Source: an uncultured Bacilli bacterium
GTDB lineage: Bacteria > Bacillota_I > Bacilli_A > RF39 > UBA660
Length of the DNA: 64,000 nucleotides
Reading direction: 5' to 3'
Assembly: GCA_947623935.1 (NCBI GenBank)
Contig: CANQIE010000001.1
Coordinates: 4,169-68,168 of the forward strand
Positions 15,459 through 48,060 of this stretch are shown piece after piece. The first letter of the stretch is position 1. Each line of letters starts with the position of its first letter. The notes under the pieces are model-generated. The model did no database searches and was not told the origin of the DNA. It saw only the letters and a program-made list of their open reading frames with translations. Made by a program: the position numbers and the translations under genes.

Positions 15459-16283
15459 TTACTTTTTATGTACCGTTACCCAGTTACTTAAATAAGCAAA
15501 ATCTTCTAGTGTTAGTTGTTCTGCCCGATACGTCAAATCTTTAGAAATATTCTTTAAACCTTCTTCTAAAAGAGAAAGATCTAATTCTTTAAAATTATTT
15601 TTCAAGTTCTTTCGTTTAAAGTGAAAAGCACATTTTATTAAGTTAAAGAAGTAATCTAAGTCCTCTACTTTAGGCATTTGTTCTTCACTCTTACGGGTTA
15701 AAGAAACAACTACACTATCGACGTTTGGTTTTGGAACAAAGGAATTCTTACTTACAACGAATTCTTTCTTAATATCAAAATAATAGTTTAAGAAAACAGT
15801 AAGAGATCCATAATCTTTGGTGTTAGCCTTAGCACAAAGTCTATCCCCTACTTCTTTTTGGACCATAATTACAATTTTATCAATTGAAATTTTACTCTCA
15901 ATCAATTTCATAATAATAGGTGTTGTAATATAGTAAGGAAGATTAGCCACTACATAGATTTGTTCATAAGAATACGAAGCAATATCCTCTTTTAAATCAC
16001 GTTTTAGAAAATCATCAAATAAAATCTTAACATTGGAATAGCCCAACAAATTTTTATCAAGAATATCTTCTAGACTAGAATCGATTTCATAACACAATAC
16101 ATTATTTCCTGTCTTTGCTAACTCTTTAGTCAAAGTTCCACTTCCAGGACCTATTTCAATAAGCAACGTATGCTCTTTAATATCAGCCACCTTAACAATG
16201 TTTTCAACAATGGACGCTTCTTTGATAAAATTTTGTCCATATTTCTTTTTAAATTGAAATTCTAAGTTTTCCATAAGTTCCAC
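15459..16283 (-). CDS. rsmA: 16S rRNA (adenine1518/1519-N6)-dimethyltransferase
   Basis: QNFI...IEIGPGSGTLT SAM-binding motif; 274 aa. Confidence 0.9.
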   Translation of the reverse strand: MELMENLEFQFKKKYGQNFIKEASIVENIVKVADIKEHTLLIEIGPGSGTLTKELAKTGNNVLCYEIDSSLEDILDKNLLGYSNVKILFDDFLKRDLKEDIASYSYEQIYVVANLPYYITTPIIMKLIESKISIDKIVIMVQKEVGDRLCAKANTKDYGSLTVFLNYYFDIKKEFVVSKNSFVPKPNVDSVVVSLTRKSEEQMPKVEDLDYFFNLIKCAFHFKRKNLKNNFKELDLSLLEEGLKNISKDLTYRAEQLTLEDFAYLSNWVTVHKK

Positions 16284-16333
16284 CTACTTAAGTATACCAT
16301 TAATAAGAAAAGAAAAAAAGGAGATTAAACTCC

Positions 16334-16819
16334 TTAATTCTTTTGACTACCAACATCAATTTTTTGTGCTACACCTTCCGAAAGTTTTGAATTTTCTTTT
16401 TTCTTACTTAATAGCAAGAAGATATTAGCAGCACTTAAACCATATAACATAATTTGAAGTGGTGCAATCATATCGGAATAGTAATCAAAGTTAATATTAA
16501 ATCCCTGCTTAATTCCTGAAATCATAAATGGATCGGCAATAGCACGAATACCACAATAAATAAATAAACTAAATACTAAACAACATACAATGTTATAAAA
16601 AAAATTATCGTTTACAATCTTTTGCCTATAAATAAAATTTACCATAAATAAAATCAAAATGACTAAATAGGGTAAAAATACAGAAACAGATTCAACTAAA
16701 CTTTTATCTAAGCGTTTATACATGAATAAAATAACATAAAGTGTTAAACCTAAACTAACTAAAAGAAGTAACGTTTTTAATACGTTTAATACTTTATTTA
16801 AAAGATAATCAATCGTCAT
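16334..16819 (-). CDS. hypothetical polytopic membrane protein, last gene of SipW cluster
   Basis: 161 aa, 4 predicted TM helices; start overlaps upstream gene stop (ATGA at 16819). Confidence 0.4.
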   Translation of the reverse strand: MTIDYLLNKVLNVLKTLLLLVSLGLTLYVILFMYKRLDKSLVESVSVFLPYLVILILFMVNFIYRQKIVNDNFFYNIVCCLVFSLFIYCGIRAIADPFMISGIKQGFNINFDYYSDMIAPLQIMLYGLSAANIFLLLSKKKENSKLSEGVAQKIDVGSQKN

Positions 16820-17511
16820 TATTTAGCCCCCTCCATTTCTTGTTTAAGAAAGTTTGATAGTTCTTCTGTGAGTGTTGCAACATCACTATAAGCGTCCACA
16901 ACTTCTGTAAAGGAACCGGATACTTCATCATATGTAATGGCTGAAATATAGGTTGTAAAATGGAAACTACTATTATTTAAAAGACGACTTTTTAAACTAT
17001 TGGTTTTTCCTGCCAACTCATTGATATAAAGTCCTAACACTTTTTCATTTTGTAACAAGAATGTATTTTTGATCTCTTTTTCACTAGCATCTGCAAACCA
17101 AGAAAGACTACCAAGACAATTCTTTACAGCTTCATTTTCATAAGATTCTCTTAAATAATATACGTCGACAATATTTACTTGTTGTTTATCGAATGTACTA
17201 CTTATAGTATCATTACTTAAAGCTGTAACACAGGTATTAAGTTTTTGATAGGCAGTTTGAGCTTGAGAACTAGTCAGTGTTCCTTCATAATCGCTTGGAT
17301 TAATGCTAGCAAGATTATCCTTAATATTTTGAACCGATGTTAAATAATCATCAATAACAGAAGTTCGATAACTAGAGGAAATCGTATAAACTTTACTAAT
17401 TTCTGCTTGATGATACATATTGATAAGTAAAAAGAATGAAGCAAAAGCAAAAACTAATCCCATTAGAGAATAAGCAATAATACGACAATATTGTTTTAAA
17501 AAATCAATCAT
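16819..17511 (-). CDS. hypothetical N-terminally membrane-anchored protein in SipW cluster
   Basis: 230 aa; TM helix YSLMGLVFAFASFFLLINMY then soluble S/T-rich domain. Confidence 0.4.
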   Translation of the reverse strand: MIDFLKQYCRIIAYSLMGLVFAFASFFLLINMYHQAEISKVYTISSSYRTSVIDDYLTSVQNIKDNLASINPSDYEGTLTSSQAQTAYQKLNTCVTALSNDTISSTFDKQQVNIVDVYYLRESYENEAVKNCLGSLSWFADASEKEIKNTFLLQNEKVLGLYINELAGKTNSLKSRLLNNSSFHFTTYISAITYDEVSGSFTEVVDAYSDVATLTEELSNFLKQEMEGAK

Positions 17512-17538
17512 AAATGTCTCCTTTTTATTTTTTCATTT

Positions 17539-18114
17539 TTATGAAGCTAAAGTAACTTTGTAATGATAATGCTTATTCGTCCATGAAGTATCATAAGCAT
17601 CCATCTTTACCCAAACACGAAGAGCAAATTCATAGGTTTCATTTCCTTCAATAACACCTTCTGATAAAATATTCATTTGAAGATCGGATAAATTACCAGT
17701 AGCTACTATGTCAGTTCCTCTTTTTAATTGGTAACGAAGTTGGCTACGATCTAACAAAGTAGAAGCAGTACAACCATCTTTAATTTCACCCAAAGGCAAA
17801 TCTTCAATTAATAATCTATATTTTGCCTCATTTTCACTTTTGTTAGTTACTGTGAAAAGATATGGGTTAATAGCACTTCCATCATCGTCAGATAAAGGAT
17901 TTGCTTCCACTAAAGTGATTCCTTCACCATTATCTTTTATTGAAACTTCTAGTAGAGAAACTCCACCACTTAGATTTTCTGGTGTCATGAAGGCATAAGA
18001 GAAACTAAAGATTAAGCATAAACCTATTAATAATACAAACATGATAATAACAGGATAGGAAAAGAAGTTCTTTCCTTTTTTTTCTTCATTTTTCATTTCC
18101 ATTTTTTCTTCCAT
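17539..18114 (-). CDS. secreted protein with SipW-cognate (TasA/CalY-like) signal peptide, paralog D
   Basis: N-terminus ...LIFSFSYAFMTPENLSGG resembles SipW-cognate signal/cleavage region; C-terminal YEFALRVWVKMDAY...KHYHYKVTL motif shared with 19146..21795 paralogs. Confidence 0.5.
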   Translation of the reverse strand: MEEKMEMKNEEKKGKNFFSYPVIIMFVLLIGLCLIFSFSYAFMTPENLSGGVSLLEVSIKDNGEGITLVEANPLSDDDGSAINPYLFTVTNKSENEAKYRLLIEDLPLGEIKDGCTASTLLDRSQLRYQLKRGTDIVATGNLSDLQMNILSEGVIEGNETYEFALRVWVKMDAYDTSWTNKHYHYKVTLAS

Positions 18115-18115
18115 T

Positions 18116-19045
18116 TTAACCTCCTATGGATACTTTATCTTTTTTATTTTTCGGATAAATTCGTATCACATCTTTATATACTTCATCGTTTATTTTAACT
18201 ATTTCCTTCTTTTTCGAAGGTTCAATTAAAATTACATCTTTATATACTTCATTTACTTGCATAACTTCAATGTTGAATAATAAAGCCTTTTCTTGCTCTT
18301 CTATAACATCCTTGTCGGACACAACAGACAAGTTGTCTAACAAATTATAATCCTCTTCTTCAACTGGTTCCACCATAGGAACAACCTTAAATGGATCTTC
18401 ATCTTTTTTAGGTTTACCACCAGCAGCTTTAGTTTTATTATCTTTTTCATCTAGTACTAATTTCTTTCTTGTAGAACGAATAAACACAGCCACTAATCTA
18501 ACAAGATCATAAACGATGATAACTAAACAAGGTAGAACAATGGCAATGATCCAACCGTAGGAAGTAGATAAAAAATCTTGTAAATAACCTAATTTAGGAA
18601 TCTTGAATATGACTTTTCCTAAAATATTTTCTTGGGGTACGATCCAAGAATCTTCAATGTTGTTGTTATCTCCTTTGGTACGATATCGATAATTACCATT
18701 CGCATCTTGGTCACGTCCAACAACACGGTGAGTAACGGTTGCGCCATAATGAATAGGATCATGCGTTACAAAAGTGATGACATCTCCTACTTGTATAGAA
18801 GAAGGTAAAGCTTTAACATCAACTACAGCATCTTTAACTAGAATCGTTGGTTCCATACTATTGGTTAAAATAACATAAGCACTTAGAAGTGGCGAAACAT
18901 AATGATCTTTATTAATATTTTGTTTTTCCTCGACGAAATAGACCACCACTGTAATAGCAATTAAAACCAATATAAGTAAAATAGAATACATGAAAACAGA
19001 TGCAATAAAGTGCAACGCTCTTTTAACATAATCAAATGCTTTCAT
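18116..19045 (-). CDS. sipW: SipW-type (archaeal/ER-type) signal peptidase I with C-terminal extension containing short repeats
   Basis: LTNSMEPTI (catalytic Ser), GDVITF, TKGDNN motifs typical of SipW-type peptidases; C-terminus has repeated EVYKDVI(L/R)I segments encoded by a 20-nt direct repeat. Confidence 0.65.
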   Translation of the reverse strand: MKAFDYVKRALHFIASVFMYSILLILVLIAITVVVYFVEEKQNINKDHYVSPLLSAYVILTNSMEPTILVKDAVVDVKALPSSIQVGDVITFVTHDPIHYGATVTHRVVGRDQDANGNYRYRTKGDNNNIEDSWIVPQENILGKVIFKIPKLGYLQDFLSTSYGWIIAIVLPCLVIIVYDLVRLVAVFIRSTRKKLVLDEKDNKTKAAGGKPKKDEDPFKVVPMVEPVEEEDYNLLDNLSVVSDKDVIEEQEKALLFNIEVMQVNEVYKDVILIEPSKKKEIVKINDEVYKDVIRIYPKNKKDKVSIGG

Positions 19046-19145
19046 TTATGCACCCCGATTCTATTCACTCTACTATACATGATAACAAAAAAAAAGATTT
19101 TTTACAATAGAAAAGAAACATATAGATTATGTTTCTTGACTTATT

Positions 19146-19856
19146 TTACTTAGCAGAGGTAGCTACTAAATTGACTTTAGCAGAGAAAGTTTTTTGACTA
19201 TAGTCTTCTGCATATTGTCTAACCCACAAACGTAGGCGATATTTTTCATTATAGCCACGTTCTTCAATTCTTCTAGTAAATAACAATTTACCATCATATA
19301 CATTACTTTTAAAATCATCATATTGACTGTATACTTTGACACTTCCTATTAAAAGCGTTTCTGGAACGGCTATTTCTCTATTTCCTTTTAGATTGGTTAC
19401 ATATACTTTAACATCCGAATCTGAAAGTGTAGACTCTGCCATTTTTTCTAATATCACTTTATATTCTAATGGATTTCCTTCTCTAGGGTTACCTGTAACT
19501 TGGAAATCAAAGTAAGTATGATTCCCTACCATTACTTTTCCTTCTTCATCAAGCATAGGAAAAGCATTGGTAATATAAATTCCATTGGCAGGAAAATTAC
19601 TTCCGTTTCCACCTGGACCTGAACCATAATATCCACTATTATCGGAATAAGAGAATAAAATATCTCCTGTTTGAATAGTATTATTAGAAGTACTACTTCC
19701 TCCATCCATTCCTAAATAGTCTCGTTGAAAAGCAAATGAAAAAGTCATTATACCTGTAATCAATAAAATAAATAGGAATATAAACATATAAATATTTTTC
19801 TTAGAGGTCTTTGTTTCTTCTTGTTCCATATCCATATTCATGTCTTTTTTATCCAT
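19146..19856 (-). CDS. secreted TasA/CalY-like SipW-cognate protein, paralog C
   Basis: signal-anchor then FSFAFQRDYLGMDGG...NNTIQTGDILF (AFxD...TGTL-like TasA N-terminal motif); C-terminal YRLRLWVRQYAEDY...KTFSAKVNL. Confidence 0.5.
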   Translation of the reverse strand: MDKKDMNMDMEQEETKTSKKNIYMFIFLFILLITGIMTFSFAFQRDYLGMDGGSSTSNNTIQTGDILFSYSDNSGYYGSGPGGNGSNFPANGIYITNAFPMLDEEGKVMVGNHTYFDFQVTGNPREGNPLEYKVILEKMAESTLSDSDVKVYVTNLKGNREIAVPETLLIGSVKVYSQYDDFKSNVYDGKLLFTRRIEERGYNEKYRLRLWVRQYAEDYSQKTFSAKVNLVATSAK

Positions 19857-19947
19857 ACCTCTTCACCTCTATTATAAATGTAACATATTTTTTTTGTTTT
19901 AACAAGTTCTAATCAAAGAAAAAGTATCCTATTAGGATACTTAATTA

Positions 19948-20799
19948 TTATTTATATGATGGGGTATCTACCGCATATACGTCTAATTTAACTGAGAAAG
20001 TTTTACCATTAGTTCCACGAGTTTTTAACTTACATGTATCATCATCTAAATTCGGATGTTCTTCATTACATGTAGAACAATCAACTGTATCTTCCGAATC
20101 ACTACTAGTAGTACAAAAATCATTTGTCATATAAGTTTTATTAGTATCGATTTCATCACTTAGTTCTTTGTATCCATCAGCTGAAAGATTAGTAGTATAA
20201 TAGTGATCAGATAACCACATTTGAAAGCGATAATAATGAGTCTTTTCTCCACTAGTTTGGTCAAAAGTATTCGTATATAACAATTTATCACTATTAGATG
20301 AACCATTTCTAGTATAATTTTCTAACTTATCAAAATAACTATTTTGGTGCGTAGATTCAATATTAATTGGCGTATAATCGCCTTCTGCATCAGAAGTTTT
20401 GGTTAGTAATCTTAAACGAACATATTTAGATTCAAGCGCACTAACACTAGCATGGTCTGTTGTGTCATCTACCACGATATCATACTTAATACTCATATTA
20501 CCATTGATAGTGGAAGTTACCGTAAAATCAAATTGCCCCTTATCACCTAAAGCATTAGCTTTTGTTGCTTCTTCATCTGACATAGGCATTGCATTTGTTA
20601 ATTTAATACCATTCTCGTTTTCTTCATACTTAAATACTAAAGTACCAGTATTAATCGTATTGGTAGTTGTTCCTTGTCTTGAATAAGTAAAGAATGCAAA
20701 TGACACTCCTACTACTGCTACCACCAAAATAGCTACGGCTAAAACTGATAATAAAACTTGACTTGTTTGATGACTGTTATTATTTTTTTCTTCGTACAT
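19948..20799 (-). CDS. secreted TasA/CalY-like SipW-cognate protein, paralog B (tandem duplicate)
   Basis: start taken at second ATG (MYEEKNNN) 8 nt after AGGAGG; VGVSFAFFTYSRQGTTTNTINTGTLVF resembles TasA AFNDIKSKDATFASGTLDL; HYYRFQMWLSDHYY and GTNGKTFSVKLDVYAVD shared with paralog A. Confidence 0.55.
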   Translation of the reverse strand: MYEEKNNNSHQTSQVLLSVLAVAILVVAVVGVSFAFFTYSRQGTTTNTINTGTLVFKYEENENGIKLTNAMPMSDEEATKANALGDKGQFDFTVTSTINGNMSIKYDIVVDDTTDHASVSALESKYVRLRLLTKTSDAEGDYTPINIESTHQNSYFDKLENYTRNGSSNSDKLLYTNTFDQTSGEKTHYYRFQMWLSDHYYTTNLSADGYKELSDEIDTNKTYMTNDFCTTSSDSEDTVDCSTCNEEHPNLDDDTCKLKTRGTNGKTFSVKLDVYAVDTPSYK

Positions 20800-20865
20800 C
20801 TTTCTTATCCTCCTTATCATAATTAGATTATAATAAAGTTAACCCCCCCCAGTCAAGTAATTTGA
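20626..20865. repeat. 240-bp direct repeat copy 1 (promoter + 5'UTR + first 58 codons of paralog B)
   Basis: identical to 21622..21861 at every position I compared, offset 996 bp. Confidence 0.85.
20827..20856 (-). promoter_or_regulatory. sigma-A-like promoter TTGACT-N18-TATAAT whose spacer contains a G8 homopolymer (C8 on plus strand 20843..20850)
   Basis: minus strand reads TTGACTGGGGGGGGTTAACTTTATTATAATCTAATTATGATAAGGAGGATAAGAAAGATG; -10 lies 7 nt before first ATG, SD AGGAGG serves second ATG. Confidence 0.55.
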
Positions 20866-20955
20866 CAAAAATTTTTATCATAAAAAAAGCAGACTATATT
20901 TTTTATCATTGTCTACTTTTATCATATTACATAATACAGAGTGATTTTTATTATT

Positions 20956-21795
20956 TTATGTACTTGGTGCATCTACTGCATAAACGTGTAATTTTACTGC
21001 AAATGTTTTACCGTTAGTTCCTTTGTCCTCAGATGAATATTTTGCTGTTCCTTTTTTTTGCCCTTCTTCAGCATTTTCTCCATATACAGGATCATCACAT
21101 GGAACTTTGTGATCTGCTTCTGGAACATCCTTGTCATACTCAAGATTTGTACACATATCAGGTTTCATCATAGTTTCTTTTTCTTCTTCGCCTTCCTTGT
21201 AATGGTCAGACATCCACATTAGAAAACGATAATAATGATGACCACTTACACTAAAACTATCAGTATGTAATGTCTTAAGTGTGCCAACAGTCTTACTAGG
21301 ATCTTTAGTCGAATTAACTAATTCATCAAAATAAGTTGCTGAATCTGTTGTATTTGTATAGTTGCTATTGGTTTCACTTTTCTTCAATAAAACCTTTACA
21401 TATTTAGAATCTAATGTTTTACGTTCACCCGCTCCTTCAACTGCAGATAAAGAAACATTTTCTACTGCAATTTCATAGTTAATTTTTACATTTCCGGTGA
21501 TTGTTGACTCAACATTAAAATCAAAAGCCTGTCCTGCACCTGTTCCATAAGTCTCTCCAGTAGCCACTGTATCTGCTATAGGTAAAGCATTCTCAAGTTT
21601 AATACCTGGATTTGGTTCGTTATACTTAAATACTAAAGTACCAGTATTAATCGTATTGGTAGTTGTTCCTTGTCTTGAATAAGTAAAGAATGCAAATGAC
21701 ACTCCTACTACTGCTACCACCAAAATAGCTACGGCTAAAACTGATAATAAAACTTGACTTGTTTGATGACTGTTATTATTTTTTTCTTCGTACAT
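20956..21795 (-). CDS. secreted TasA/CalY-like SipW-cognate protein, paralog A (tandem duplicate)
   Basis: first 58 aa and entire 5' UTR/promoter identical to paralog B; C-terminal domain diverged but keeps HHYYRFLMWMSDHY and GTNGKTFAVKLHVYAVD. Confidence 0.55.
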   Translation of the reverse strand: MYEEKNNNSHQTSQVLLSVLAVAILVVAVVGVSFAFFTYSRQGTTTNTINTGTLVFKYNEPNPGIKLENALPIADTVATGETYGTGAGQAFDFNVESTITGNVKINYEIAVENVSLSAVEGAGERKTLDSKYVKVLLKKSETNSNYTNTTDSATYFDELVNSTKDPSKTVGTLKTLHTDSFSVSGHHYYRFLMWMSDHYKEGEEEKETMMKPDMCTNLEYDKDVPEADHKVPCDDPVYGENAEEGQKKGTAKYSSEDKGTNGKTFAVKLHVYAVDAPST

Positions 21796-21861
21796 CTTTC
21801 TTATCCTCCTTATCATAATTAGATTATAATAAAGTTAACCCCCCCCAGTCAAGTAATTTGA
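21622..21861. repeat. 240-bp direct repeat copy 2 (promoter + 5'UTR + first 58 codons of paralog A)
   Basis: identical to 20626..20865. Confidence 0.85.
21823..21852 (-). promoter_or_regulatory. second copy of TTGACT-G8-N10-TATAAT promoter (C8 on plus strand 21839..21846)
   Basis: identical to copy at 20827..20856. Confidence 0.55.
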
Positions 21862-21880
21862 TACAAAATATTTGATTGAC

Positions 21881-21904
21881 AAAAAAAGAATGCTCCAAGC
21901 ATTC
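21881..21904 (-). terminator. rho-independent terminator downstream of yabE-like gene
   Basis: minus strand GAATGCTTGGAGCATTC hairpin followed by TTTTTTT. Confidence 0.55.
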
Positions 21905-21914
21905 CTAAATTCTT

Positions 21915-22502
21915 TTACCAACCCCAACGAAGTATTTCGTAGGAGATATTATATTGTCTACCAATAGGGGCTGTAACTTTTTCTGATTCAAACAATAAAT
22001 CCATAGTTAATCCTTTAATAGCACTTCCACGATCAAGCGCAATGGCTATAATAGGTTCACTACTAAAGCGGAAGTTTGATATTTTTACAATAGTTCCACA
22101 CGGAATCACTGGATCAGTGGCTACAATTCGTATAGTTCCATAAGTTGCATCGTTAAAATAGATATTCCCATCTCGTACATCTTGTCTTGGAGGACATCCT
22201 ACTCTTCCTCCACATCCTTCACAATCGGGACCATAGCCTGTGATAGTACCAGTAAAAGTAATAGGACCAATAGGACCTTGCTCCTCTATTTCAGCAAGAC
22301 TTGATACATATAGAGGTTTATTACTATCTAAAATAGCATTATATTTCGATACAATGTGAATAGCTTCTAAAGATTTAGTACGATTAATATTATCTGTTTT
22401 AATTACTTCACGTTGATTACCAGAAGCAATAATTAAAAGAATTACTGCTATAAAGGAAATGAGAAGAAAACGATTCTTCATGGCTACTAAAAATTGTCTC
22501 AT
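21915..22502 (-). CDS. 3D-domain (MltA-like) cell-wall-binding protein, YabE/YuiC-like
   Basis: N-terminal TM, C-terminal TGYGPDCEGCGG...VATDP...IALDRGSAIKG...D 3D-domain pattern; position after tatD as yabE in B. subtilis. Confidence 0.65.
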   Translation of the reverse strand: MRQFLVAMKNRFLLISFIAVILLIIASGNQREVIKTDNINRTKSLEAIHIVSKYNAILDSNKPLYVSSLAEIEEQGPIGPITFTGTITGYGPDCEGCGGRVGCPPRQDVRDGNIYFNDATYGTIRIVATDPVIPCGTIVKISNFRFSSEPIIAIALDRGSAIKGLTMDLLFESEKVTAPIGRQYNISYEILRWGW

Positions 22503-22531
22503 ATCACACCTCTATTGTTAAATAGAGCATA

Positions 22532-23293
22532 TCACATCTTTTTCGTTAAGTCAAATAAACGATGGGTATTTGTTAAAGTTATTTTAGATACTTCTTCTAG
22601 TGTTATTTGTTTAATATCCGCAATTCTTTGCGCAATAACAGGGATATTCCAAGGACCATTCTTTTTTCCACGATAAGGTTCAGGAGCCAAATAAGGACTA
22701 TCCGTTTCTAAGAGTATTTTTTCAAGAGGAAGTTCTTTGACCGTTTCATGTAGTTTGCTATTTTTAAAAGTAACAACGCCTCCAATTCCAAAATAAAAAC
22801 CTAATTTTAAAAAAACTTTAGCCATTTCTAAACTTTCATTAAAGCAGTGGAGAACACCTACTACGTTATATTCTTTAATAATATCATAAGTATCTTGAAT
22901 AGCATCTCTTGTATGAATAACAACAGGAAGATGATACTTTTCAGCGAGTGCTAATTGTTTTCTAAATAAGTCAATTTGCTTATTTCTATTTTCTTTTCCA
23001 TAATGATAATCAAGTCCTATTTCTCCTACGCCTACACAAGAAGAAGCTTTGATTTTTTCTTCTAAAAACTTTAAGTCCTCATCAATTACAGAGTCCGCAC
23101 AATCAGGATGGTATCCCAAAGTTAAAAATACATCTTCTTCTAGTGATGCAATTTTTAAAACTTCTTCCATTTCTTTTCTATTACAACCACTTACAATAAA
23201 AGGGGAAACTTGATTTTTTCTTGCTTCATTTAAAACTTCTTGATAATCATCATAACTATCGCTTCCTAAATGAAAATGAGTATCAATAAACAT
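22532..23293 (-). CDS. tatD: TatD-family metal-dependent DNase (YabD)
   Basis: MFIDTHFHL N-terminus, 253 aa TatD hydrolase fold motifs. Confidence 0.9.
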   Translation of the reverse strand: MFIDTHFHLGSDSYDDYQEVLNEARKNQVSPFIVSGCNRKEMEEVLKIASLEEDVFLTLGYHPDCADSVIDEDLKFLEEKIKASSCVGVGEIGLDYHYGKENRNKQIDLFRKQLALAEKYHLPVVIHTRDAIQDTYDIIKEYNVVGVLHCFNESLEMAKVFLKLGFYFGIGGVVTFKNSKLHETVKELPLEKILLETDSPYLAPEPYRGKKNGPWNIPVIAQRIADIKQITLEEVSKITLTNTHRLFDLTKKM

Positions 23294-23604
23294 ACAATTC
23301 CTTCTTTCAGCAATAGTATATCATAGAAAAAGAATGACTAAAAATCATTCTTTACTTAATACTACATAATACGTAAAACCAAAAAGCAGAATTACGCCAA
23401 AAGTGAAGTCTAGCAGGCATCCATCAATAAAAGGAAGTACTTTAATAATGATGGATATCAGCACACATCCTAACAAGGTGTTTCTAAGGCTTCGTTTCAT
23501 GTGTAATAGTTTCATCGTCTTGTTCCCTTTCTATTCTTTTTGAGCAACTACTTTCTCACTATAACATAATAGAAAAAGGAAATAGAAGTTTTTTCTTCTT
23601 TATT

Positions 23605-25170
23605 TTAGGAGTTTACACCTGTGTGCGACAAGAAAACATTAATTTCTTCCATTTTCTTGTTTTTATCAAGACGCATAAAGATAGGTTTTGCCTCTTGGAC
23701 TTCATAGGCATTATCTTCTTTATACGTTAAAGTATCATCCGTAGTTCCTAATTGACTTAAGATTTCTTTACTGGTATCCGGTAAGAAGGCTTCTAGTAAA
23801 TTAGCACATACACGAATAGATTCTAATAAATTGTATAATACCGTTGATAGAAGGGCTTGCTTACTTTCATCTTTGGCAAGAGCCCAAGGAGTAGTATCAT
23901 CAATATATTTATTACTGTTACGTAATTGGTTCATAATTTCTTCAAGAGCATTTCCAACTTCTAATTTATTCATCTTTTTATCCACTAAAGTTGGTAGATT
24001 CTTGATATGATCAATAAAGCTTTCATCAAATTCGGTTGTTTGACTCGTACGACTTACTTTTCCATCAAAATATTTATGAGCCATTGAAATCGTTCTATTG
24101 ACCAAATTTCCTAAAACATTCGCAAGATCGCTATTGTAACGTTCAATGATTAAATCATAAGTTATATTTCCATCGTTGGCAAAAGGCATCTCATGTAAAA
24201 CATAATAACGAATAGCATCGACTCCAAATAAATGCACTAAATCGTCGGCATACATAACGTTACCTTTACTTTTACTCATTTTATCGTCTTGAAAAAGCAT
24301 CCATGGATGACCAAAGACTTGTTTTGGTAAAGGTTCACCTAGCGCCATTAAAATAATAGGCCAATAAATAGTATGAAATCGAATAATATCTTTACCAATT
24401 AAGTGTAAATCGCAAGGCCACCACTTGTTGTACTCTGAACTACTACCATCGACATCGTAACCAATGTTCGTAATATAATTGGTTAGTGCATCAATCCAAA
24501 CATAGACTACATGTTTTGGATCAAAATCTACTGGAATTCCCCAAGAGAAACTAGAACGCGAAACACATAAATCTTGTAGACCTGGTTTGATAAAATTATT
24601 AATCATTTCATTCTTTCTAGATTCAGGTTGAATAAACTCTGGATGAGATTCAATGTAATCAATTAATTGATCTTGGTATTTTGATAATTTAAAGAAATAC
24701 GCTTCTTCTTCCGCTTTATGAACTTCTCTTCCACAATCGGGACATTTGCCATCCACTAATTGACTCTCCGTAAAGAAAGATTCGCAAGGAGTACAGTATA
24801 ATCCTTTATAAGTTCCTTTATAGATATCCCCTTGTTCATAAAGTTTTTTAAAGATTTTTTGTACTTTTTTAACATGTTCTGGATCGGTAGTTCTTACAAA
24901 ACGATCATAGCTTGTGTTCATAATATCCCAAATCGCTTTAATTTCACCTGCTACTTCGTCGACATAAGCTTGAGGAGTAATACCTTTTTCTTTAGCTTTT
25001 AACTCAATTTTCTCCCCATGTTCATCGGTTCCCGTTTGAAAATAAACTTCGTATCCTTTTTTTCTTTTGTACCTAGCAATGGCATCTGCTAAAACAATCT
25101 CATAGGTATTTCCAATATGTGGTTTCGATGAAGTATATGCAATTGCCGTACTAATGTAAAATTTTTCCAT
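23605..25170 (-). CDS. metG: methionyl-tRNA synthetase (short form without C-terminal tRNA-binding domain)
   Basis: HIGH-type (SKPHIGN) and KMSKS (KMSKSKGN) motifs, zinc knuckle CTPCE...CPDCG. Confidence 0.95.
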   Translation of the reverse strand: MEKFYISTAIAYTSSKPHIGNTYEIVLADAIARYKRKKGYEVYFQTGTDEHGEKIELKAKEKGITPQAYVDEVAGEIKAIWDIMNTSYDRFVRTTDPEHVKKVQKIFKKLYEQGDIYKGTYKGLYCTPCESFFTESQLVDGKCPDCGREVHKAEEEAYFFKLSKYQDQLIDYIESHPEFIQPESRKNEMINNFIKPGLQDLCVSRSSFSWGIPVDFDPKHVVYVWIDALTNYITNIGYDVDGSSSEYNKWWPCDLHLIGKDIIRFHTIYWPIILMALGEPLPKQVFGHPWMLFQDDKMSKSKGNVMYADDLVHLFGVDAIRYYVLHEMPFANDGNITYDLIIERYNSDLANVLGNLVNRTISMAHKYFDGKVSRTSQTTEFDESFIDHIKNLPTLVDKKMNKLEVGNALEEIMNQLRNSNKYIDDTTPWALAKDESKQALLSTVLYNLLESIRVCANLLEAFLPDTSKEILSQLGTTDDTLTYKEDNAYEVQEAKPIFMRLDKNKKMEEINVFLSHTGVNS

Positions 25171-25184
25171 TTCTTTTTCCTCCT

Positions 25185-25435
25185 AAAAAAAGATGACTTA
25201 TTATGTTAAGGACGGATCTTTTCCGCGGTACCACCTTAATTTATAATAAATCATCTTATTATACACTTTCTAAAGTTAACGCCTATCTTACGTTTTCGCC
25301 TACCTATCGACGAAAAAGTTCCGAAGCCATATCCATTTGAGTCATCTTTCCTTGCTTTCACCTAACCAAGGTCTCTTTTTTAAAGAATCAATCAAAGGAC
25401 TCTTCATCAAAACTTTTGAATATGGCTAGATTATA
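25185..25435 (-). promoter_or_regulatory. T-box riboswitch leader upstream of metG
   Basis: minus strand contains T-box sequence AATTAAGGTGGTACCGCGG (plus 25223..25240); terminator halves AAGATGATTTATTAT / ATAATAAGTCATCTT flank it, followed by U-run and metG RBS; ATG-containing candidate specifier region GAAAGATGACTC further 5'. Confidence 0.65.
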
Positions 25436-25447
25436 ACATAATTCAAA

Positions 25448-25978
25448 TTATTGTTCAAGGTGTTTCGATAAAAATTGTGTAATAATCGTAACCATGTGCT
25501 TTTCGGTATCGGTAATATTTTTTTCCGGTTCATAAAGAATAACTTTTCCTACGGCATCCCCATTTACAAGAATAGTTGATCCATAGAAGTAACCTTCTTC
25601 AAATAGTCCATCTGATATCTCAAACTTCGTCTTGAGATGAGAATTTAGTTCTTTCTTATCGACAATGTTCTCTTCTAAAGTTCTAGATAAACTTCTGCCT
25701 AAATATTTTTTTCTTAATGGAAGAGAGCATCCTAATACCTCATCTCGATCCGTTATAATAACGGAGGCATTTAGTGATTGATACACGGCATCGGCTAAAG
25801 CCTGTGAAATATCTTCCATATCGTTCATTGGTGAATATTTCTTTAAAGCAATCATATCTTTATCCACAAATATTTCCAATGACTCACCATCCCTAATCCG
25901 TAAACTTCTGCGTATTTCTTTAGGAACGACGATTCTTCCTAAATCGTCTATTCTTCTAACAACTCCGGTTGTTTTCAT
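25448..25978 (-). CDS. spoVT: stage V sporulation protein T (AbrB-type N-domain + GAF-like C-domain)
   Basis: MKTTGVVRRIDDLGRIVVPKEIRRSLRIRDGESLEIFVDKDMIALKKYSP is near-identical in pattern to B. subtilis SpoVT; located after mfd as in Bacillus; ORF-track N-terminal extension to 26116 rejected. Confidence 0.8.
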   Translation of the reverse strand: MKTTGVVRRIDDLGRIVVPKEIRRSLRIRDGESLEIFVDKDMIALKKYSPMNDMEDISQALADAVYQSLNASVIITDRDEVLGCSLPLRKKYLGRSLSRTLEENIVDKKELNSHLKTKFEISDGLFEEGYFYGSTILVNGDAVGKVILYEPEKNITDTEKHMVTIITQFLSKHLEQ

Positions 25979-26160
25979 AAAATCCCCACTTTCCTTACAA
26001 TATCTAGTTTTCCAACAAAAAGAATGTTTATACCTAGAATATATTTTTTTACTTTTTACTGCTTCATAAATATTATAAGCATTTTTTGGGCAATTTTCTT
26101 TGGAAATATTTACCAATAGTTTACAATCGTTTAAAAATAAGGCTTTTATGGCCTTATTTT

Positions 26161-38264: not shown

Positions 38265-38282
38265 AAATTATCACCTCAAAAT

Positions 38283-38366
38283 AAAAGATGCACATGAGAT
38301 TAAACTATTAAAGCTGCTATCTTCCGATCCTGACTTGGTTCTAGTCATCTCATTGCATCGTTATTA
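38283..38366 (-). ncRNA. ffs: small SRP RNA (4.5S/scr), domain IV
   Basis: minus strand GATGCAATGAGAT...GTCAGGATCGGAAGATAGCAGC...ATCTCATGTGCATC: closing helix plus conserved GUCAGG-NNN-GGAA-NNN-AGCAGC with GGAA tetraloop; U-run follows. Confidence 0.6.
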
Positions 38367-38404
38367 TTGTAATCTATTTTTATTTTTTTTGCAACTATAT
38401 ATTA

Positions 38405-38565: not shown

Positions 38566-41211
38566 TTATTCATCTTCAGTTGGTACTTCAATTGCTTCAA
38601 CTACAGATTCATCATCTTCTTCTAAATCATCATTGTTTTCTTCATGTGCAACCGATGCAACGGAAGCCACTTTTTGATCATTCTTCAAATGAATTAAACG
38701 AACACCTTGTGTTGAACGACGTAAAGTAGATACTTGATCGATTGGTAATCGAATGACGATTCCACTATCAGTAATAATAACTAAATCTTCTTCATCAGTA
38801 ACAGCTTTTAAAGTAACAAGCATTCCATTCTTTTCAGTAACATTTAAGGCTTTAACACCTTTGCTACCTCTATGTGTTAAACGATAATCATCAATTGGTG
38901 TTTGTTTTCCATATCCATTTTCAGTAACAACTAAAACATTTTCGTTGGCATAAACGATTTCGCCACCCACTACTTTAGCAGAACCTAAATCGATTCCTCG
39001 AACACCAGAAGCAGATCTTCCCATGATCCGAACTTCAGATTCTTTAAAGCGAACCATTCGTCCATTAGAAGCACCAATAATAATTTCATTATCTCCCGTA
39101 GTCTTACCTACAGAAATCAATTCATCATCTTCTTTTAAAGTGATAGCTATTTTTCCACTTCGACGAATATTATCAAATTCAACTAAGTTTGTTCTCTTAA
39201 CTACACCATTTCTAGTAATAAAGAATAAATATTTATAATCTTCTTCATTCGCTTTGATAGATAAAATTGAATTAATTTTTTCTTCTTTTTCCACAGGTAA
39301 TAAATTGATAATTGGCAATCCCTTACTTTGTCTGCTAAATTCTGGAACCTCGTAACCTTTCATACGATAGACTTTACCTTTATTACTAAAGAATAAGATA
39401 TAGTCATGCGTTTCCATGTTGATCATTTTTTCAACGAAATCTTCTTCGCTAGTAGCCATTCCTTTAACACCTACACCACCTCTATTTTGAGTACGGTATT
39501 CATCTACAGATAGACGTTTAATGTATCCTTTATTAGTAAGTGTTATCAATGTATTTTCAACTGGAATAAGGGATTCATCTTCGATATAATCAACGGCAGT
39601 CATATCAATCTTGGTACGTCGATCATCACCATATTTCTTTTTAATTTCAAGCATTTCTTCTTTAATAATTTCAAGAACACGTTCAGGTTTAGCTAGAATA
39701 TCTTTGTAATCAGCAATTTTGATTTGTAAATCTTCTAGTTCACTTTCAACTTTTCCACGTTCCAAACCAGTTAAACGACGAATACGCATTTCAAGAATAC
39801 TATTTGCTTGAATTTCATCCAAGCCAAAACGTTCTTGTAATTTAGCACGTGCTTCTTCATCCGTATCAGCAGAACGCACAATATGAACCACTTCATCGAT
39901 ATTATCTAAAGCAATTCGTAATCCTTCTAAAATGTGAACACGTTCTTCTGCTTTTCCTAAATCAAAACGAGTTCTTCTAACAATAACTTCTTTTTGATGT
40001 TCAATATATTTAGAAATAATATCTTTTAATCCTAAAGTCTTTGGTGTTTGTCCATCCAAAACAAGGAAAATAATTCCATAATTAACTTGGAAATTCGTAT
40101 GTTTATATAAATTATTTAAAACAACTTGTGGATTAGCATCCTTCTTTAAAGTAATTGTTATTTTGACCCCATCTTTTAGATCCGTATGGTAGTCTGAAAT
40201 ACCTTCAATAACTTTATTGTGTACTAATTCAGCTACTTTATTTTTAAGTTCCATTGTATTAACACCATAAGGAACTTCATCGATAATAATATTGCTGTGG
40301 CTTCCTGCATCTTCAATGGTAGCTTTACTACGAATGGTGATGCTTCCACGACCTGTTTCATAAGCCTTCTTAATACCAGAATTACCTAAAATAATTCCTC
40401 CTGTTGGAAAATCAGGTCCTTTAATATATTCCATTAAACCTAGAGTATCAATGTCTGGATTATCAATATACGCAACACATCCATCGATAACCTCAGATAA
40501 GTTATGTGGCGGAATATTCGTAGCCATACCAACCGCAATTCCCATAGAACCATTAACTAAAATGTTAGGAAATCTAGAAGGTAAAACCGTAGGTTCTTTC
40601 ATAGTAACATCGAAGTTATCGTCCATATCAACGGTATCTTTATTGATATCTCTCAATAATTCCAAAGAAATCTTAGCAAGGCGAGATTCGGTATAACGCA
40701 TTGCTGCAGCACCGTCTCCTTCGATATTACCAAAGTTTCCATGTCCATCAATCAACACATATCGTTGATTAAAATCTTGCGCTAAACGAACCATCGCTTC
40801 ATAAATAGAACTATCGCCATGTGGGTGATAATGACCCATTACATAACCTACGGTCGTAGCACTTTTACGATGAGGTTTATCTGGTGTATAACCTGATTCA
40901 TACATACTCCATAAAATACGACGATGAACTGGTTTTAATCCATCTCGTAAATCCGGTAAAGCACGCGATTTAATAACACTCATGGAATATTCCATAAAAG
41001 ATGTTTTTACTTCATCGACAATATTATTGTGATCAAGTCGGTCTCTTTCATGAAAGTAACCACTGAAGTTAGAACTATTAGAAGACGCTAATGTATTATT
41101 ATCATTGGTCGCCTCTTCGTTTGTACTATCTAAAACAATATCTTCTTCAACCGGTCCATCATTTTCATTAGCACGATCTAATAATTCATCTAAATTATCT
41201 TTATTATCCAT
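38566..41211 (-). CDS. gyrA: DNA gyrase subunit A (with about 45-aa low-complexity N-terminal extension and acidic C-tail)
   Basis: SRALPDLRDGLKPVHRR, active-site region, six GyrA-box-containing C-terminal blades; 881 aa. Confidence 0.95.
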   Translation of the reverse strand: MDNKDNLDELLDRANENDGPVEEDIVLDSTNEEATNDNNTLASSNSSNFSGYFHERDRLDHNNIVDEVKTSFMEYSMSVIKSRALPDLRDGLKPVHRRILWSMYESGYTPDKPHRKSATTVGYVMGHYHPHGDSSIYEAMVRLAQDFNQRYVLIDGHGNFGNIEGDGAAAMRYTESRLAKISLELLRDINKDTVDMDDNFDVTMKEPTVLPSRFPNILVNGSMGIAVGMATNIPPHNLSEVIDGCVAYIDNPDIDTLGLMEYIKGPDFPTGGIILGNSGIKKAYETGRGSITIRSKATIEDAGSHSNIIIDEVPYGVNTMELKNKVAELVHNKVIEGISDYHTDLKDGVKITITLKKDANPQVVLNNLYKHTNFQVNYGIIFLVLDGQTPKTLGLKDIISKYIEHQKEVIVRRTRFDLGKAEERVHILEGLRIALDNIDEVVHIVRSADTDEEARAKLQERFGLDEIQANSILEMRIRRLTGLERGKVESELEDLQIKIADYKDILAKPERVLEIIKEEMLEIKKKYGDDRRTKIDMTAVDYIEDESLIPVENTLITLTNKGYIKRLSVDEYRTQNRGGVGVKGMATSEEDFVEKMINMETHDYILFFSNKGKVYRMKGYEVPEFSRQSKGLPIINLLPVEKEEKINSILSIKANEEDYKYLFFITRNGVVKRTNLVEFDNIRRSGKIAITLKEDDELISVGKTTGDNEIIIGASNGRMVRFKESEVRIMGRSASGVRGIDLGSAKVVGGEIVYANENVLVVTENGYGKQTPIDDYRLTHRGSKGVKALNVTEKNGMLVTLKAVTDEEDLVIITDSGIVIRLPIDQVSTLRRSTQGVRLIHLKNDQKVASVASVAHEENNDDLEEDDESVVEAIEVPTEDE

Positions 41212-41223
41212 ATTTTCACCCCC

Positions 41224-43155
41224 CTAAATATCAAGATTTTGTACATTCCATGCATTTTCTTCGATAAACTTACGACGAGGATCTACTTCATCACCCATTA
41301 ATTTTTCAAAAATAGCATCGGCTGCAACACAATCTTCTACTGTTATTTTTCTTAAAACACGTTTTTCAATGTCCATCGTTGTTTCATTTAATTCATCTGC
41401 ATCCATTTCTCCTAAACCTTTCATACGAGCAATCTCAGCACGAGATCGTACGTTTTCTGGTAAAGAATTCATATAAGCATTTAATTCATCTTCATTTAAC
41501 ACATATTTTCTTGTTTTACCATGCATGATACGGAATAATGGTGGTTGAGCAGCATAGACATGTCCTGCTTGAACAATTGGACGGAAGAAACGATAAAATA
41601 AAGTTAATAACAATACACGAATATGACTTCCATCAACATCGGCATCGGTCATGATAATAATCTTATCGTACCTTAATTTTGATAAATCAAAGTACTCCCC
41701 TATTCCAGTTCCAAAAGCCGTAATAATGGTTTTAATCTCTTCATTTCCAAGAGCTCTATCAAGTCTTGCTTTTTCTACATTTAAAATCTTACCACGTAAT
41801 GGAAGAATTGCTTGAGTCATCGAGTCTCTTCCTTTTTTAGCAGAACCACCTGCCGAATCTCCCTCGACGATAAAGATTTCAGAAATCGTTGGATCTTTAC
41901 TCTTACAATCCGATAATTTACCAAAGAAATTAGTAGTGGCTAAATCACTTTTTCTGGTTGCTTCTCTTGCTTTTTTAGCAGCCATTCTGGCATTTCGTGC
42001 AAGGATTGCTTTATTGATAATAACTCTTGCTTCTTCTGGGTTTTCAAGTAAGAAACGTTCAAATCCATCCGAGAATACACTATCGGCTAGATTCTTCACT
42101 TCAGAGTTTCCAAGACGACCTTTCGTTTGTCCTTCAAATTGAGGATTTGGATGTTTACAAGAAATGATCATAGTCAATCCTTCTTTAACATCGTCATCTT
42201 TTAAATTCTCATCTTTTTCTTTTAAGATGTTGTTCTTTCGTGCATAATTATTGATAACTCTAGTAAGTGCACGTTTAACTCCATCCTCGTGCGTTCCTCC
42301 ATCATGAGTATTGATATTATTAACAAAGGAATAAATATTGGTATTATAAGAAGTGTTATATTGCATCGCAACTTCGAAAATAACATCGTTCTTTTCTCCT
42401 GATAAATGGATAATATCTTCATGAATAGGTGTTTTTTCTTGATTGATGAAACGAACATATTCACTAATACCACCTTCATACATAAAGGTTTCTCCTGTTG
42501 TATCTTCCATATCACGATCATCGCGAATATTTAAAGATAGTCCTTTATTTAAGAAAGCAAGTTCACGAATTCTAGTCTTTAGTGTTTCATAATCATAAAT
42601 ATCGGTATCAAAAATATCAGGATCTGGTTTAAATGAAACAGTTGTACCCGTTCTATCTGGTTCACAATCCCCTATAACATGTAAAGGTTCAGTAGTATGT
42701 CCACCATTTTCAAAACGCATCTTGTAGATTTTACCCTCTTTATAAACTGTAACTTCTACCCATTTTGATAAAGCATTTACTACACTCGCACCAACACCGT
42801 GGAGACCTCCTGATACTTTATATCCGCCTCCACCAAATTTTCCACCTGCATGAAGTACGGTATAAACCGTCTCTACCGTAGAAACACCTGTCTTAGGGTG
42901 AATATCTACTGGGATTCCACGTCCATTATCTTTTACGGTAATCGAATTATCTTTATTGATAACGACTTCAATATGTGTACAAAATCCAGCAAGAGCTTCA
43001 TCTATAGAGTTATCCACAATTTCCCAAACTAAATGATGGAGTCCTTTAACATCTGTTGTACCAATATACATACCCGGTCTTTTTCGAACTGCCTCTAGTC
43101 CTTCTAAAACTTGAATCGATGACGAATCATATTCTTCATTTACTTTTTCTTCCAT
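41224..43155 (-). CDS. gyrB: DNA gyrase subunit B
   Basis: GHKL ATPase, Toprim EGDSAGG motifs; 643 aa. Confidence 0.95.
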
Positions 43156-43156
43156 C

Positions 43157-44272
43157 TTATTTCATCCTTTCTTCGATTGTTCCATCTTGTACTGTAAATA
43201 TTTTAGCATCTTGTAATATATCCCTTTTTATATCTTTTAAATCCGTAGTTGTAATGATGGTTTGAATATCTTTTTCAATATATTTCAATAATTTATTTTT
43301 CTTTTTTCGATCAATTTCACTAAAAATATCATCTAATAAAAGAACGGGTGTTGTAGAGGTATCTTCTTTAAAGAGTTCAATCTCTGCTAATTTAAAACAA
43401 ATAACAGCTAATCGTTGTTGTCCTTGGGAAGCAAAAAAACGCATATTATCGTTGTTCAAATAAAAAGAAAAATCATCTCGATGCGGTCCAAATAAAGTAG
43501 TGCCTTGAGCTAGTTCTCGTTCCCTATTCTTCCGTAATTTATTCACTAATTCTTTATTTAGACTTGCTTCTTCAAAGCTAGCAACTTCAATATTAGGTTC
43601 ATATTTTATAACAAGACCACTGGTTCCTGTTATATTTTCATAAATAGTGCCAATCACTTTATTGATTCGATTTAAAAATTCATTCCGATATTTATAAATT
43701 TTAACTGCTCGCTCCACTAGTTTTTCATCTAATACTGATAAATAGTTCTCATCCCTTAAATGATTCACATACATAAGTCGTAAATATTCATTTCGATTTT
43801 TTAAAATCTTATCGTACTCATTTAGTAATTGCAGATAAGTTCTCGATAATTGACTCATATCAATATTTAAAAGATTTCTTCTAATGGATGGCGAACCTTT
43901 GATAATCTCTAAATCATCGGGTGTAAAAATAATCACATTTAAATGGGTAATATAATCAGCAATTTTTCTTACTTCTTTACCATTTAATAAAACTTTTTTT
44001 TGTAATTTAGTGAGTTGAATTTCTAAATCACGAAAGATTTTTCCATCTTTCACAGTACCCTTAATTTTAGATTGTTCCTCCCCTATTTTGATTAATGTGT
44101 TTTCGATTCCTTGTCGATGTGATTTTGTAAGAGCTAAAAGATAGATACTTTCTAGAATATTGGTTTTTCCCTGAGCATTATTTCCAACAAATATATTGAT
44201 ACCGGGATGTAATTTAATATTTTGCTTTTTATAATTTCGAAAATGAATTAAGCTAATTTTCGTTAATATCAT
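43157..44272 (-). CDS. recF: DNA replication and repair protein RecF
   Basis: Walker [13 protein letters not shown] signature, 371 aa. Confidence 0.95.
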
Positions 44273-44384
44273 AATTTGATAAAAAAACGCTCATAAAATC
44301 ACCTTTTCTTGAAGTCCAATACTCCTATACACACATATCTATTATAACATAGATTTTATCTTTAAACCATAAAAAAAGGCTTTT

Positions 44385-44861
44385 TTAGCCATTTTTTACT
44401 GTTTTTCGATGATTTAAAATAGATTCTAATAAAGTCGCTCTTAAAAATTGATTATTTAGAGAATAACTGGAGACATTGGTTTTAATAATTTTTCCATTAT
44501 TGAAATAGATTAAAGCTTTTCTTTGATTTTTTCCAATCTTTTTAAAATGCTTAAGGGATATCCAAATACAATCATCTAATAAAGGTGAATTGGTTGGAAA
44601 GAAAATGAGCCTTCGATCTTCTTCTACCACAATAGGTAATTTGTACTCTGCATTTAGTATTGCTTTAGACCCTATTACTCTCCCCTCATAACTACTTCCA
44701 TAATACTTACAACTGTCATCCATAATCTCGTAAGCAGACTTATCTACGATATACTCATCGTTGGTTTCAATGATACGTGACTTATTTTCAGATATACTAA
44801 TAATAGCTAGTGTATCATCATTGATTTCATAATCAAACATTTCTTTTCCCCCTAACTGCAA
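44385..44861 (-). CDS. comK: ComK-family competence transcription factor-like protein
   Basis: CKYYGSSYEGR, PIVVEEDRRLIFFPTNSP...CIWISLKHF, YFNNGKI blocks align with B. subtilis ComK (CRFFGSSYAGR, PIMVDPSNQIFLFPTLSS..CGWISHVHV, TFSNGKT). Confidence 0.7.
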   Translation of the reverse strand: MQLGGKEMFDYEINDDTLAIISISENKSRIIETNDEYIVDKSAYEIMDDSCKYYGSSYEGRVIGSKAILNAEYKLPIVVEEDRRLIFFPTNSPLLDDCIWISLKHFKKIGKNQRKALIYFNNGKIIKTNVSSYSLNNQFLRATLLESILNHRKTVKNG

Positions 44862-44970
44862 ATTTTAAATTTGCGCCACCATTTTATCAAATTTACCTGT
44901 CGAAATTCCTCTAATTTTGTCGAAGGGAAAAAATTTTGTCAAAAAAAGAAGAAAGCCATTTTTCTTCCTT

Positions 44971-46092: not shown

Positions 46093-46231
46093 ATTATTTT
46101 CCTTCTTTCTTATATTTTTTTATTATTTTTAAAGTGGAAACTGTTCATAACTTCATTTTCACTTTATTTTACTATTCTTTCTTCTTTATTTTCTTGTGGA
46201 AAAAAGCGTTTATAATTTTTATTTATCCCCT
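46093..46231. promoter_or_regulatory. dnaA-dnaN intergenic oriC half (AT-rich region with DnaA boxes, likely DUE side)
   Basis: TGTGGAAAA (46194..46202) and weaker boxes in a >80% AT spacer. Confidence 0.5.
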
Positions 46232-47599: not shown

Positions 47600-47608
47600 A
47601 AATATCAC

Positions 47609-47932
47609 ATCCTTATCAGCGTATTGTTTAAAAGTAAATTCATTGTTTTTTATTGTAACTGAAATTGTGGAAAAAGAAAAGAAAAAAAATTAAAAAATTG
47701 AAATTCACAGGTTATTCACCTGTTTTGCACAAAGTTATCCACTAATCTTATCCTTATTATATAAGGAAATGGTTGATTTTTCCACAAAATATGTAAATTT
47801 TATAATCAACAAGGTGCATTTTGTTTTCCACAAAGCTGTGCAAAATGTGGAAAAAATAAAAATCTAAAAAGCGGTTGACAAATTTCCTTTTTTCCTATTA
47901 TAATAATGGAGACTTTATGTTTGGAGGTGGAA
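47609..47932. promoter_or_regulatory. oriC DnaA-box cluster upstream of dnaA
   Basis: at least six 8/9 or 9/9 matches to TTATCCACA in both orientations (47666, 47735, 47778, 47824, 47846 etc.) plus A-tracts. Confidence 0.8.
47875..47904 (+). promoter_or_regulatory. rpmH promoter TTGACA-N18-TATAAT
   Basis: perfect -35 and -10 hexamers read directly, about 30 nt upstream of rpmH ATG. Confidence 0.5.
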
Positions 47933-47935
47933 ATG

Positions 47936-48058: not shown

Positions 48059-48060
48059 TA

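Follow-up and report, generated by a model that had tools for sequence, protein, structure and literature searches.

The stretch analysed here (hereafter the window) comprises 64,000 nucleotides (nt) of contig CANQIE010000001.1 (positions 4,169 to 68,168) from an uncultured Bacilli bacterium (GCA_947623935.1). It contains two adjacent minus-strand genes, here termed gene A and gene B, which encode related secreted proteins and are each preceded by a promoter carrying an uninterrupted run of eight G residues (G8) between its -35 and -10 elements. These runs are examined as a candidate length-variable switch acting on the two genes, whose features in window coordinates are as follows.

20956..21795 (stop included), minus strand: gene B, 279 amino acids (aa; P0005), a secreted all-beta protein with a body variable after residue 58
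19948..20799 (stop included), minus strand: gene A, 283 aa (P0001), a paralogue of gene B
21823..21852, minus strand: promoter of gene B (-35 TTGACT at 21852-21847, G8 at 21846-21839, TTAACTTTAT at 21838-21829, -10 TATAAT at 21828-21823)
20827..20856, minus strand: promoter of gene A, identical in sequence to that of gene B (-35 at 20856-20851, G8 at 20850-20843, -10 at 20832-20827, spacer 18 nt)
21622..21861, minus strand: 240-nt module, copy B (promoter with G tract, leader with ribosome-binding site, codons 1-58)
20626..20865, minus strand: 240-nt module, copy A, 100% identical to copy B

Two tandem genes behind identical promoters

Read on the minus strand, window positions 20626-20865 and 21622-21861 agree at 240 of 240 positions, with no mismatch. 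The repeat consists of 66 nt of promoter and leader followed by codons 1-58, which specify the signal peptide and the first ~23 mature residues and end in ...GTLVFKY. Its edge is abrupt, as the nucleotide identity of genes A and B outside the repeat is ~50-60% within 40 nt, and the two proteins, identical over residues 1-58, share 48% identity in the remainder. Both promoters read TTGACT-GGGGGGGG-TTAACTTTAT-TATAAT, where GGGGGGGG is the G8 tract and the whole spacer measures 18 nt. They match the consensus at 11 of 12 positions and are the top promoter-like sites between 16500 and 22600.

On the plus strand the two tracts appear as C8 at 20843-20850 and 21839-21846. They are the sole G/C runs of at least 7 in the 64 kb, and the only other run of at least 6 is a C6 at 41219-41224, in the intergenic gap between gyrB and gyrA. 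For independent and identically distributed bases at 31.1% GC, the expected number of runs of at least 8 per 64 kb is 0.008 for G and 0.039 for C (~0.05 in total). The original prediction, made from the letters of this stretch, had given the coordinates of the two minus-strand genes, the identical 240-bp stretch (promoter, 5' untranslated region and 58 codons) with divergence beyond it, TTGACT-18 nt-TATAAT with G8 as the recognisable promoter of each copy, and the absence of any further 8-nt G/C homopolymer, all of which are borne out by these results.

Translation is taken to start at MYEEK, ahead of which the ribosome-binding site AAGGAGG lies at a distance of 9 nt, the leader being ~21 nt long. 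An alternative start at an in-frame ATG 21 nt upstream (MIRRIRK..., leaderless initiation included) was rejected, as this ATG is not conserved among relatives and is AAG in L003. With regard to the two G8 tracts, a graph assembler resolving a 240-nt repeat could read both copies from one shared edge, in which case the G8/G8 state would not represent two independent measurements.

The promoter tract in related genomes

The window promoter, flanks included, recurs in related Bacilli of the rabbit gut. When 11 upstream regions from 6 genomes are aligned, TTGAC and TATAAT are invariant and the region of the ribosome-binding site is conserved. Within identical flanks (TTGACT-Gn-TTAACTTTAT-TATAAT), n is 7 in L001, a syntenic relative (gene 1, spacer 17 nt), 8 in both window copies (18 nt) and 9 in L160 (19 nt). 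Tract-length polymorphism among related genomes, for which the original prediction had asked as a check, is thus present, the same promoter occurring with G7, G8 and G9. A G9 tract in L001 gene 2 and a G8 tract in L002 both follow directly after TTGAC, while L016, which belongs to another genus (~39% protein identity) and has six tandem family genes, contains G9 in the spacer of one of them within unrelated flanks.

The G9 of L160 (1554-1562) precedes a solitary family gene, P0003, adjoining ygjP/spoU/rimM/trmD/rplS, so that tract promoters also occur outside the main operon. The syntenic locus of L003 has interrupted G-rich spacers such as GGTTGGGG, two of 17 nt and one of 18 nt, which, judged by their sequence, resemble a tract in a locked or ancestral form. 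Homologous promoters devoid of a tract have spacers of 16-18 nt, e.g. TTGACA-17-TATAAT in L022 and TTGACG-17-TATAAT in L003. The contig of P0121 begins 18 nt before the ATG and is therefore without the promoter.

Across the upstream regions of 142 family genes, the length of the longest G run is bimodal, with at most 5 in 135 regions, 7-9 in 7 and none at 6. The family loci in genome assemblies (951,533 bases) contain 18 runs of at least 7, all of which (18/18) are G on the sense strand of the gene, and 17 of which sit in such promoters or in early coding sequence. The remaining run, a G7 in L029, lies in unrelated coding sequence encoding Gly-Gly and was set aside.

One further contig touches tract B. 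The segment 7224-7246 of L079 (a k=31 Logan contig, ERR10663781), equivalent to window 21861-21839, ends exactly at the last G of the tract. The contig thus covers 23 nt of the repeat and stops 7 nt short of the break that the repeat alone would force; at the opposite edge the overlap with the repeat is 30 nt, as expected. This end may, as a weak indication, reflect a tract-length branch among the reads.

Frame-breaking runs in Lapin-012__bin84

The genome Lapin-012__bin84 encodes nine copies of a ~540-aa secreted protein, each of which contains a run of G8-G10 (L034 8794; L038 69 and 2485; L045 6347; L049 37 and 1934; L070 4440; L071 5088; L075 8812). No Pfam match was found for this protein, and the copies with their upstream flank on the contig come after a family gene. 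For 8 of the 9 copies the contig includes the start codon, and in these the distance from the ATG to the beginning of the run is 59 nt. One of the eight (G8) is in frame and seven (G9/G10) are frameshifted, with frames of 505-540 codons uninterrupted after the run. The ATG of the ninth copy (L049 37, G10) is off the contig start, and an open frame of 533 codons follows. That the 'off' copies have kept intact frames speaks for reversible switching and against gene decay.

A member of the family itself is affected in the same genome: at L061 69, a G10 beginning 26 nt after the ATG breaks the frame, and G9 would restore both the frame and a normal signal peptide (GISYAAFTYSG). Judged from the sequences of the Lapin-012__bin84 copies, poly-G contingency loci appear to operate in this related group.

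Variable bodies behind a homogenised 5' module

Between L001 and the window, alignment at 92% identity extends from 28848 down to 21622, precisely the end of the module, and resumes at 86-92% from 19877 downstream. No blastn similarity to L001 was found for the variable parts of genes A and B. For the four proteins concerned (window A and B, L001 genes 1 and 2), all six pairings show 38-48% identity after residue 58 and 90-100% before it.

The window module matches that of L001 gene 1 at 223/240 positions and that of L001 gene 2 at 211/240, compared with 240/240 between the window paralogues. The window paralogues are thus closer to each other in this part than to either L001 orthologue, indicating that the module was homogenised after the lineages split, and its sequence suggests that a gene-B-type module was probably copied onto gene A. 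A tandem arrangement is usual for family genes, and a similar tendency is seen in the 39 adjacent pairs found, the opening 170 coding nt having a higher mean similarity (0.86) than the 430 nt that follow (0.73). Conversion of the 5' module, which had been proposed from the window alone, fits both the abrupt edge from 100% to 55% and the greater similarity of paralogues than of orthologues.

The protein family and its relation to TasA

Genes A and B gave no Pfam or NCBIfam match at E <= 0.1. The family has 779 matches in a word-indexed search, with no Pfam domain among the matches listed, and 4,549 representatives of clusters at 50% identity match it at E <= 0.001. Its genes occur in metagenome-assembled genomes (MAGs) of uncultured gut Bacilli from rabbit, chicken ('Candidatus Onthousia'), human and mouse, some of which are labelled Tenericutes. 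In look-ups of exact proteins, gene A (with two start choices), gene B, P0001, the partial gene B product, P0004 and P0006 were not on record. The family N-terminus is almost invariant, reading QVLLSVLAVAILVVAVVGVSFA(F/A)F and then N-T-I-x-TGT, and residues 25-63 have a predicted local distance difference test (pLDDT) score below 50 in the monomer model, i.e. they are predicted to be disordered.

The long family members P0209, P0207 and P0272 (620-841 aa) have Big_2, BspA-type leucine-rich repeat or cadherin-like domains after the family domain. This arrangement suggests that the family domain can present adhesin-type domains, and a surface or adhesive role would fit such sequences.

The search of the PDB with the family profile returned 0 matches at E <= 10, and nothing significant was found by Foldseek against the PDB; the TasA fibre is the best fold match, and a weak one. 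In hhalign, the probability is 15% against Bacillus subtilis TasA (sequence verified against 8aur) and 8.5% against a 40-sequence TasA profile. Both alignments are confined to the signal peptide and the first strand (the N-terminal 58 columns for the 40-sequence profile), and hhalign places the TasA cleavage region TWA|AFND on SFA|FFTY, and GTL on GTL. The description of the genes as TasA/CalY-like therefore stands in one part, since a SipW-type peptidase (TIGR02228) is encoded alongside, and fails in another, as there is no PF12389 match and hhalign reaches the mentioned 8.5%. The products may be SipW-associated secreted beta-sandwich proteins that are perhaps TasA-like in their working, and they are not filed here under PF12389 (Peptidase_M73).

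Operon and genomic setting

The remaining features of the locus are listed below.

21886..21906, minus strand: intrinsic terminator of the upstream 3D-domain gene (terminator scan)
20872..20926, minus strand: weak stem-loop followed by U7, between genes B and A (-13.1 kcal/mol, z = -2.0)
19922..19942, minus strand: intrinsic terminator 3' of gene A (terminator scan)
19146..19856, minus strand: divergent paralogue, 236 aa, candidate minor subunit (hhalign against the family profile 99.3%, E = 1.5e-20)
18116..19045, minus strand: SipW-type signal peptidase I of the archaeal/endoplasmic reticulum type, 309 aa (TIGR02228, 95.8 bits, cut-off 51.85, E = 2.2e-27)
17539..18114, minus strand: distant paralogue, 191 aa (hhalign 94.6%, E = 7e-8)
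16334..17511, minus strand: two conserved membrane proteins (230 aa and 161 aa) at the operon end, syntenic in L001 and L016

The minus-strand order of the operon is gene B, gene A, the 236-aa paralogue, the peptidase, the 191-aa paralogue and the two membrane proteins, the last of which had no family match in profile searches. The terminator at 21886..21906 shields promoter B from read-through. The stem-loop between genes B and A, not called by the terminator scan, is a possible leaky terminator. Against the SipW-Bacillus model the peptidase scores 79 bits, below the cut-off of 190. It has a C-terminal extension of ~110 aa (window 18116-18450) with the internal repeat EVYKDVILIEP / EVYKDVIRIYP, outside the match to the peptidase model. 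The orthologue of the 236-aa paralogue in L001 (8945-9691) contains a (GS)n repeat insertion, GSGSGSGSGSGSGG, which the window lacks and which adds a second type of length-variable repeat to the operon.

The operon lies between a yabE-like 3D-domain gene and ksgA, inside a conserved metS-tatD-yabE-ksgA block (window 15459-25170) and ~26 kb from the replication origin. The operon is inserted at this site in L001, L003 and L016 as well, with 2, 3 and 6 tandem major-subunit genes, respectively, and the peptidase and the operon arrangement are syntenic in L001 and L016. The chromosomal origin is spanned by window 38566-49412, where gyrA, gyrB, dnaN and dnaA are on the minus strand up to 47608 and yidC/spoIIIJ is on the plus strand from 48483, gene orientation flipping at ~47.7-48.4 kb. 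A T-box leader upstream of metS (25205-25419) and a small signal recognition particle RNA (38271-38369) both score above the Rfam gathering scores. Window 25448-26116 encodes a SpoVT-like AbrB-family regulator (154 bits against the 236-bit SpoVT cut-off).

A candidate promoter-spacer switch and its rivals

It is moderately likely, from the sequences compared, that the G run allows each protein variant to be tuned by changes in promoter-spacer length. Slipped-strand mispairing during replication would add or remove a G, moving the spacer among its optimum of 17 nt, the 18 nt of the present, probably intermediate state, and 19 nt, at which the promoter would be weak or off, so that transcription of each variant would be raised or lowered heritably, reversibly and independently. 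The locus would supply secreted surface-fibre or matrix subunits processed by the SipW-type peptidase, with two interchangeable major variants, two divergent paralogues and two membrane proteins. Gene conversion would keep the module (switch, leader, signal peptide and first mature residues) identical while the exposed bodies diversify. By analogy with TasA, the first mature residues may form a donor strand, and the conserved module would thus keep both variants compatible with secretion, with SipW cleavage and, if they are TasA-like, with donor-strand assembly. Switching within a population, the effect on transcription and the formation of fibres are what we infer. Of the strict ON/OFF switch foreseen by the original prediction, the mutable tract in the spacer is retained, and its action is better seen as a dial (17 > 18 > 19). 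The 18-nt G8/G8 state is probably active, because the tract-less paralogue L003_g3 also uses 18 nt.

Several points weigh against such tuning. All assembled states fall within 17-19 nt and a tract-less paralogue has 18 nt, so G8 may be fully active and the effect perhaps modest. The tract is found in just 7 of 142 family promoters and is therefore lineage-specific rather than family-wide. Family loci from other metagenomes (79 protein-based loci, 375 kb) are without any G/C run of at least 7, and the tract promoter had 0 matches when the metagenome collection was scanned for its pattern. Homopolymer length in low-coverage MAG contigs may be off by one (L160 has 11x coverage). The evidence for switching consists of assembled sequences compared between genomes, and fibre formation rests on a weak fold match. 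Finally, the switching rate depends on mismatch repair, and mutS and mutL are not in the window.

Some of these points would equally suit a static G-rich spacer, merely tolerated or bound by a regulator, with G7, G8 and G9 representing slow fixed indels or assembly errors of one base. This explanation is rather unlikely yet carries real weight: the 16-18 nt span of tract-less homologous promoters implies that one-base changes may be tolerated, both window copies are G8, and the minority occurrence of the tract and the mismatch-repair status (mutS/mutL outside the window) also speak for it. It is at odds with the retention of a pure run in two genera with different flanks, with the bimodal run lengths that skip 6, and with the restriction of all tracts to one strand and position. 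The frameshifting G8-G10 runs with intact frames in Lapin-012__bin84 are hard to explain without reversible switching. To our knowledge, moreover, G runs of at least 8 are intrinsically unstable in all bacteria studied, Campylobacter and Neisseria among them, which counts against a static spacer.

The G run might instead serve mainly in recombination, as a hotspot or starting point from which the 5' module is converted, with promoter spacing incidental. The converted 240-nt block does begin just 15 nt upstream of the tract, and tandem paralogues of the family often have homogenised 5' ends; however, the tract-less tandem pairs L017, L020, L013 and L018 are equally homogenised (upstream regions 94-99% identical), a single G8 cannot form an intramolecular quadruplex, and the solitary gene of L160 carries the tract all the same, so this explanation is considered very improbable. 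Still less credence is given to an assembly or sequencing artefact, whether poly-G noise of two-colour chemistry or a collapsed repeat. Short-read assemblies do break at the 240-nt repeat, and graph-based repeat resolution could force the copies to read identically, but the tract is internal and short, its flanks are continuous and conserved, and independent assemblies of different samples and species have it at the same place in the promoter (window, L001, L002, L016, L079 and L160).

Tuning of each variant through spacer length is thus the explanation preferred here. A wider proposal, put forward tentatively and judged doubtful, is that a clade-wide poly-G contingency system acts on genes of SipW-processed, donor-strand-assembled fibres, in which promoter tracts would dial antigenically distinct subunits combinatorially, intragenic tracts would switch accessory proteins on and off, and conversion would move a portable module (switch, signal peptide and donor strand) onto new bodies.

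Significance

The occurrence of G7, G8 and G9 on one promoter, together with the frameshifting runs in a relative, points to contingency loci in uncultured rabbit-gut Bacilli. They would represent a switch of a known kind, in a lineage new to it and acting on a protein family not described before; in the literature searched, no report was found tying TasA-type proteins, or gut commensal Bacillota or gut Firmicutes, to poly-G switching. If true, spacer tuning would provide a simple signature in the sequence by which MAGs could be searched for phase-variable surface structures, a reason for assembly breaks at these loci and a candidate means of immune or phage evasion by commensals. The clade-wide system, if it exists, would give Gram-positive commensals an equivalent of phase and antigenic variation in the pilin/Opa style, with an unannotated family as its basis.

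Comparison with known systems

Repeat-driven contingency loci are textbook knowledge for Neisseria, Haemophilus, Campylobacter and mycoplasmas. The tapA-sipW-tasA operon of Bacillus and the sipW-tasA-calY locus of Bacillus cereus differ from the window locus, as TasA is under SinR/SlrR and not a repeat tract, and tandem hypervariable major subunits are not a TasA feature. The pilE/pilS system of Neisseria is similar to the window locus in its conserved N-terminal export and assembly part, its hypervariable exposed part and its gene conversion between cassettes. It differs in fold and secretion route, and both cassettes of the window locus are complete promoter-bearing genes, with neither silent copies nor a G4 element of the pilE/pilS type seen there.

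Campylobacter jejuni likewise lives in the gut and has a low GC content (~30%), and its G/C runs of at least 8 are rare, hypermutable and concentrated in genes for surface structures, both within and between genes (PMC8355987). It belongs to the Campylobacterota, is without mismatch repair and has mostly intragenic tracts, in contrast to the window locus in a member of the Bacillota. In porA and opc of Neisseria meningitidis, a G/C homopolymer lies between the -35 and -10 elements and its length sets a graded promoter strength. Phase variation by simple sequence repeats in Neisseria is treated in general terms in PMC5084427. The porA and opc genes are those of a Gram-negative pathogen, encode outer-membrane proteins, have tracts of 9-14 and are single genes without a tandem shared module.

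The vlp genes of Mycoplasma hyorhinis share a conserved 5' region (promoter, leader and signal peptide) ahead of divergent bodies. They are portrayed, in the summary of Citti and Wise 1995 given by PMC10502178, as clustered variable surface-protein genes with a transcript of their own each, whose expression is switched by indels in a promoter poly-A tract. Both vlp and vmm of Mycoplasma mycoides resemble the window locus in having homopolymer promoter tracts on surface-protein genes and in belonging to hosts that are relatives within the Bacilli, and in vmm the repeat is in the promoter spacer, as it is here. The vlp system has poly-A and lipoproteins, whereas the window locus, known from sequence alone, has poly-G and a SipW-type signal, and the window organism, unlike the mycoplasmas, appears to be walled, as it encodes a 3D-domain protein.

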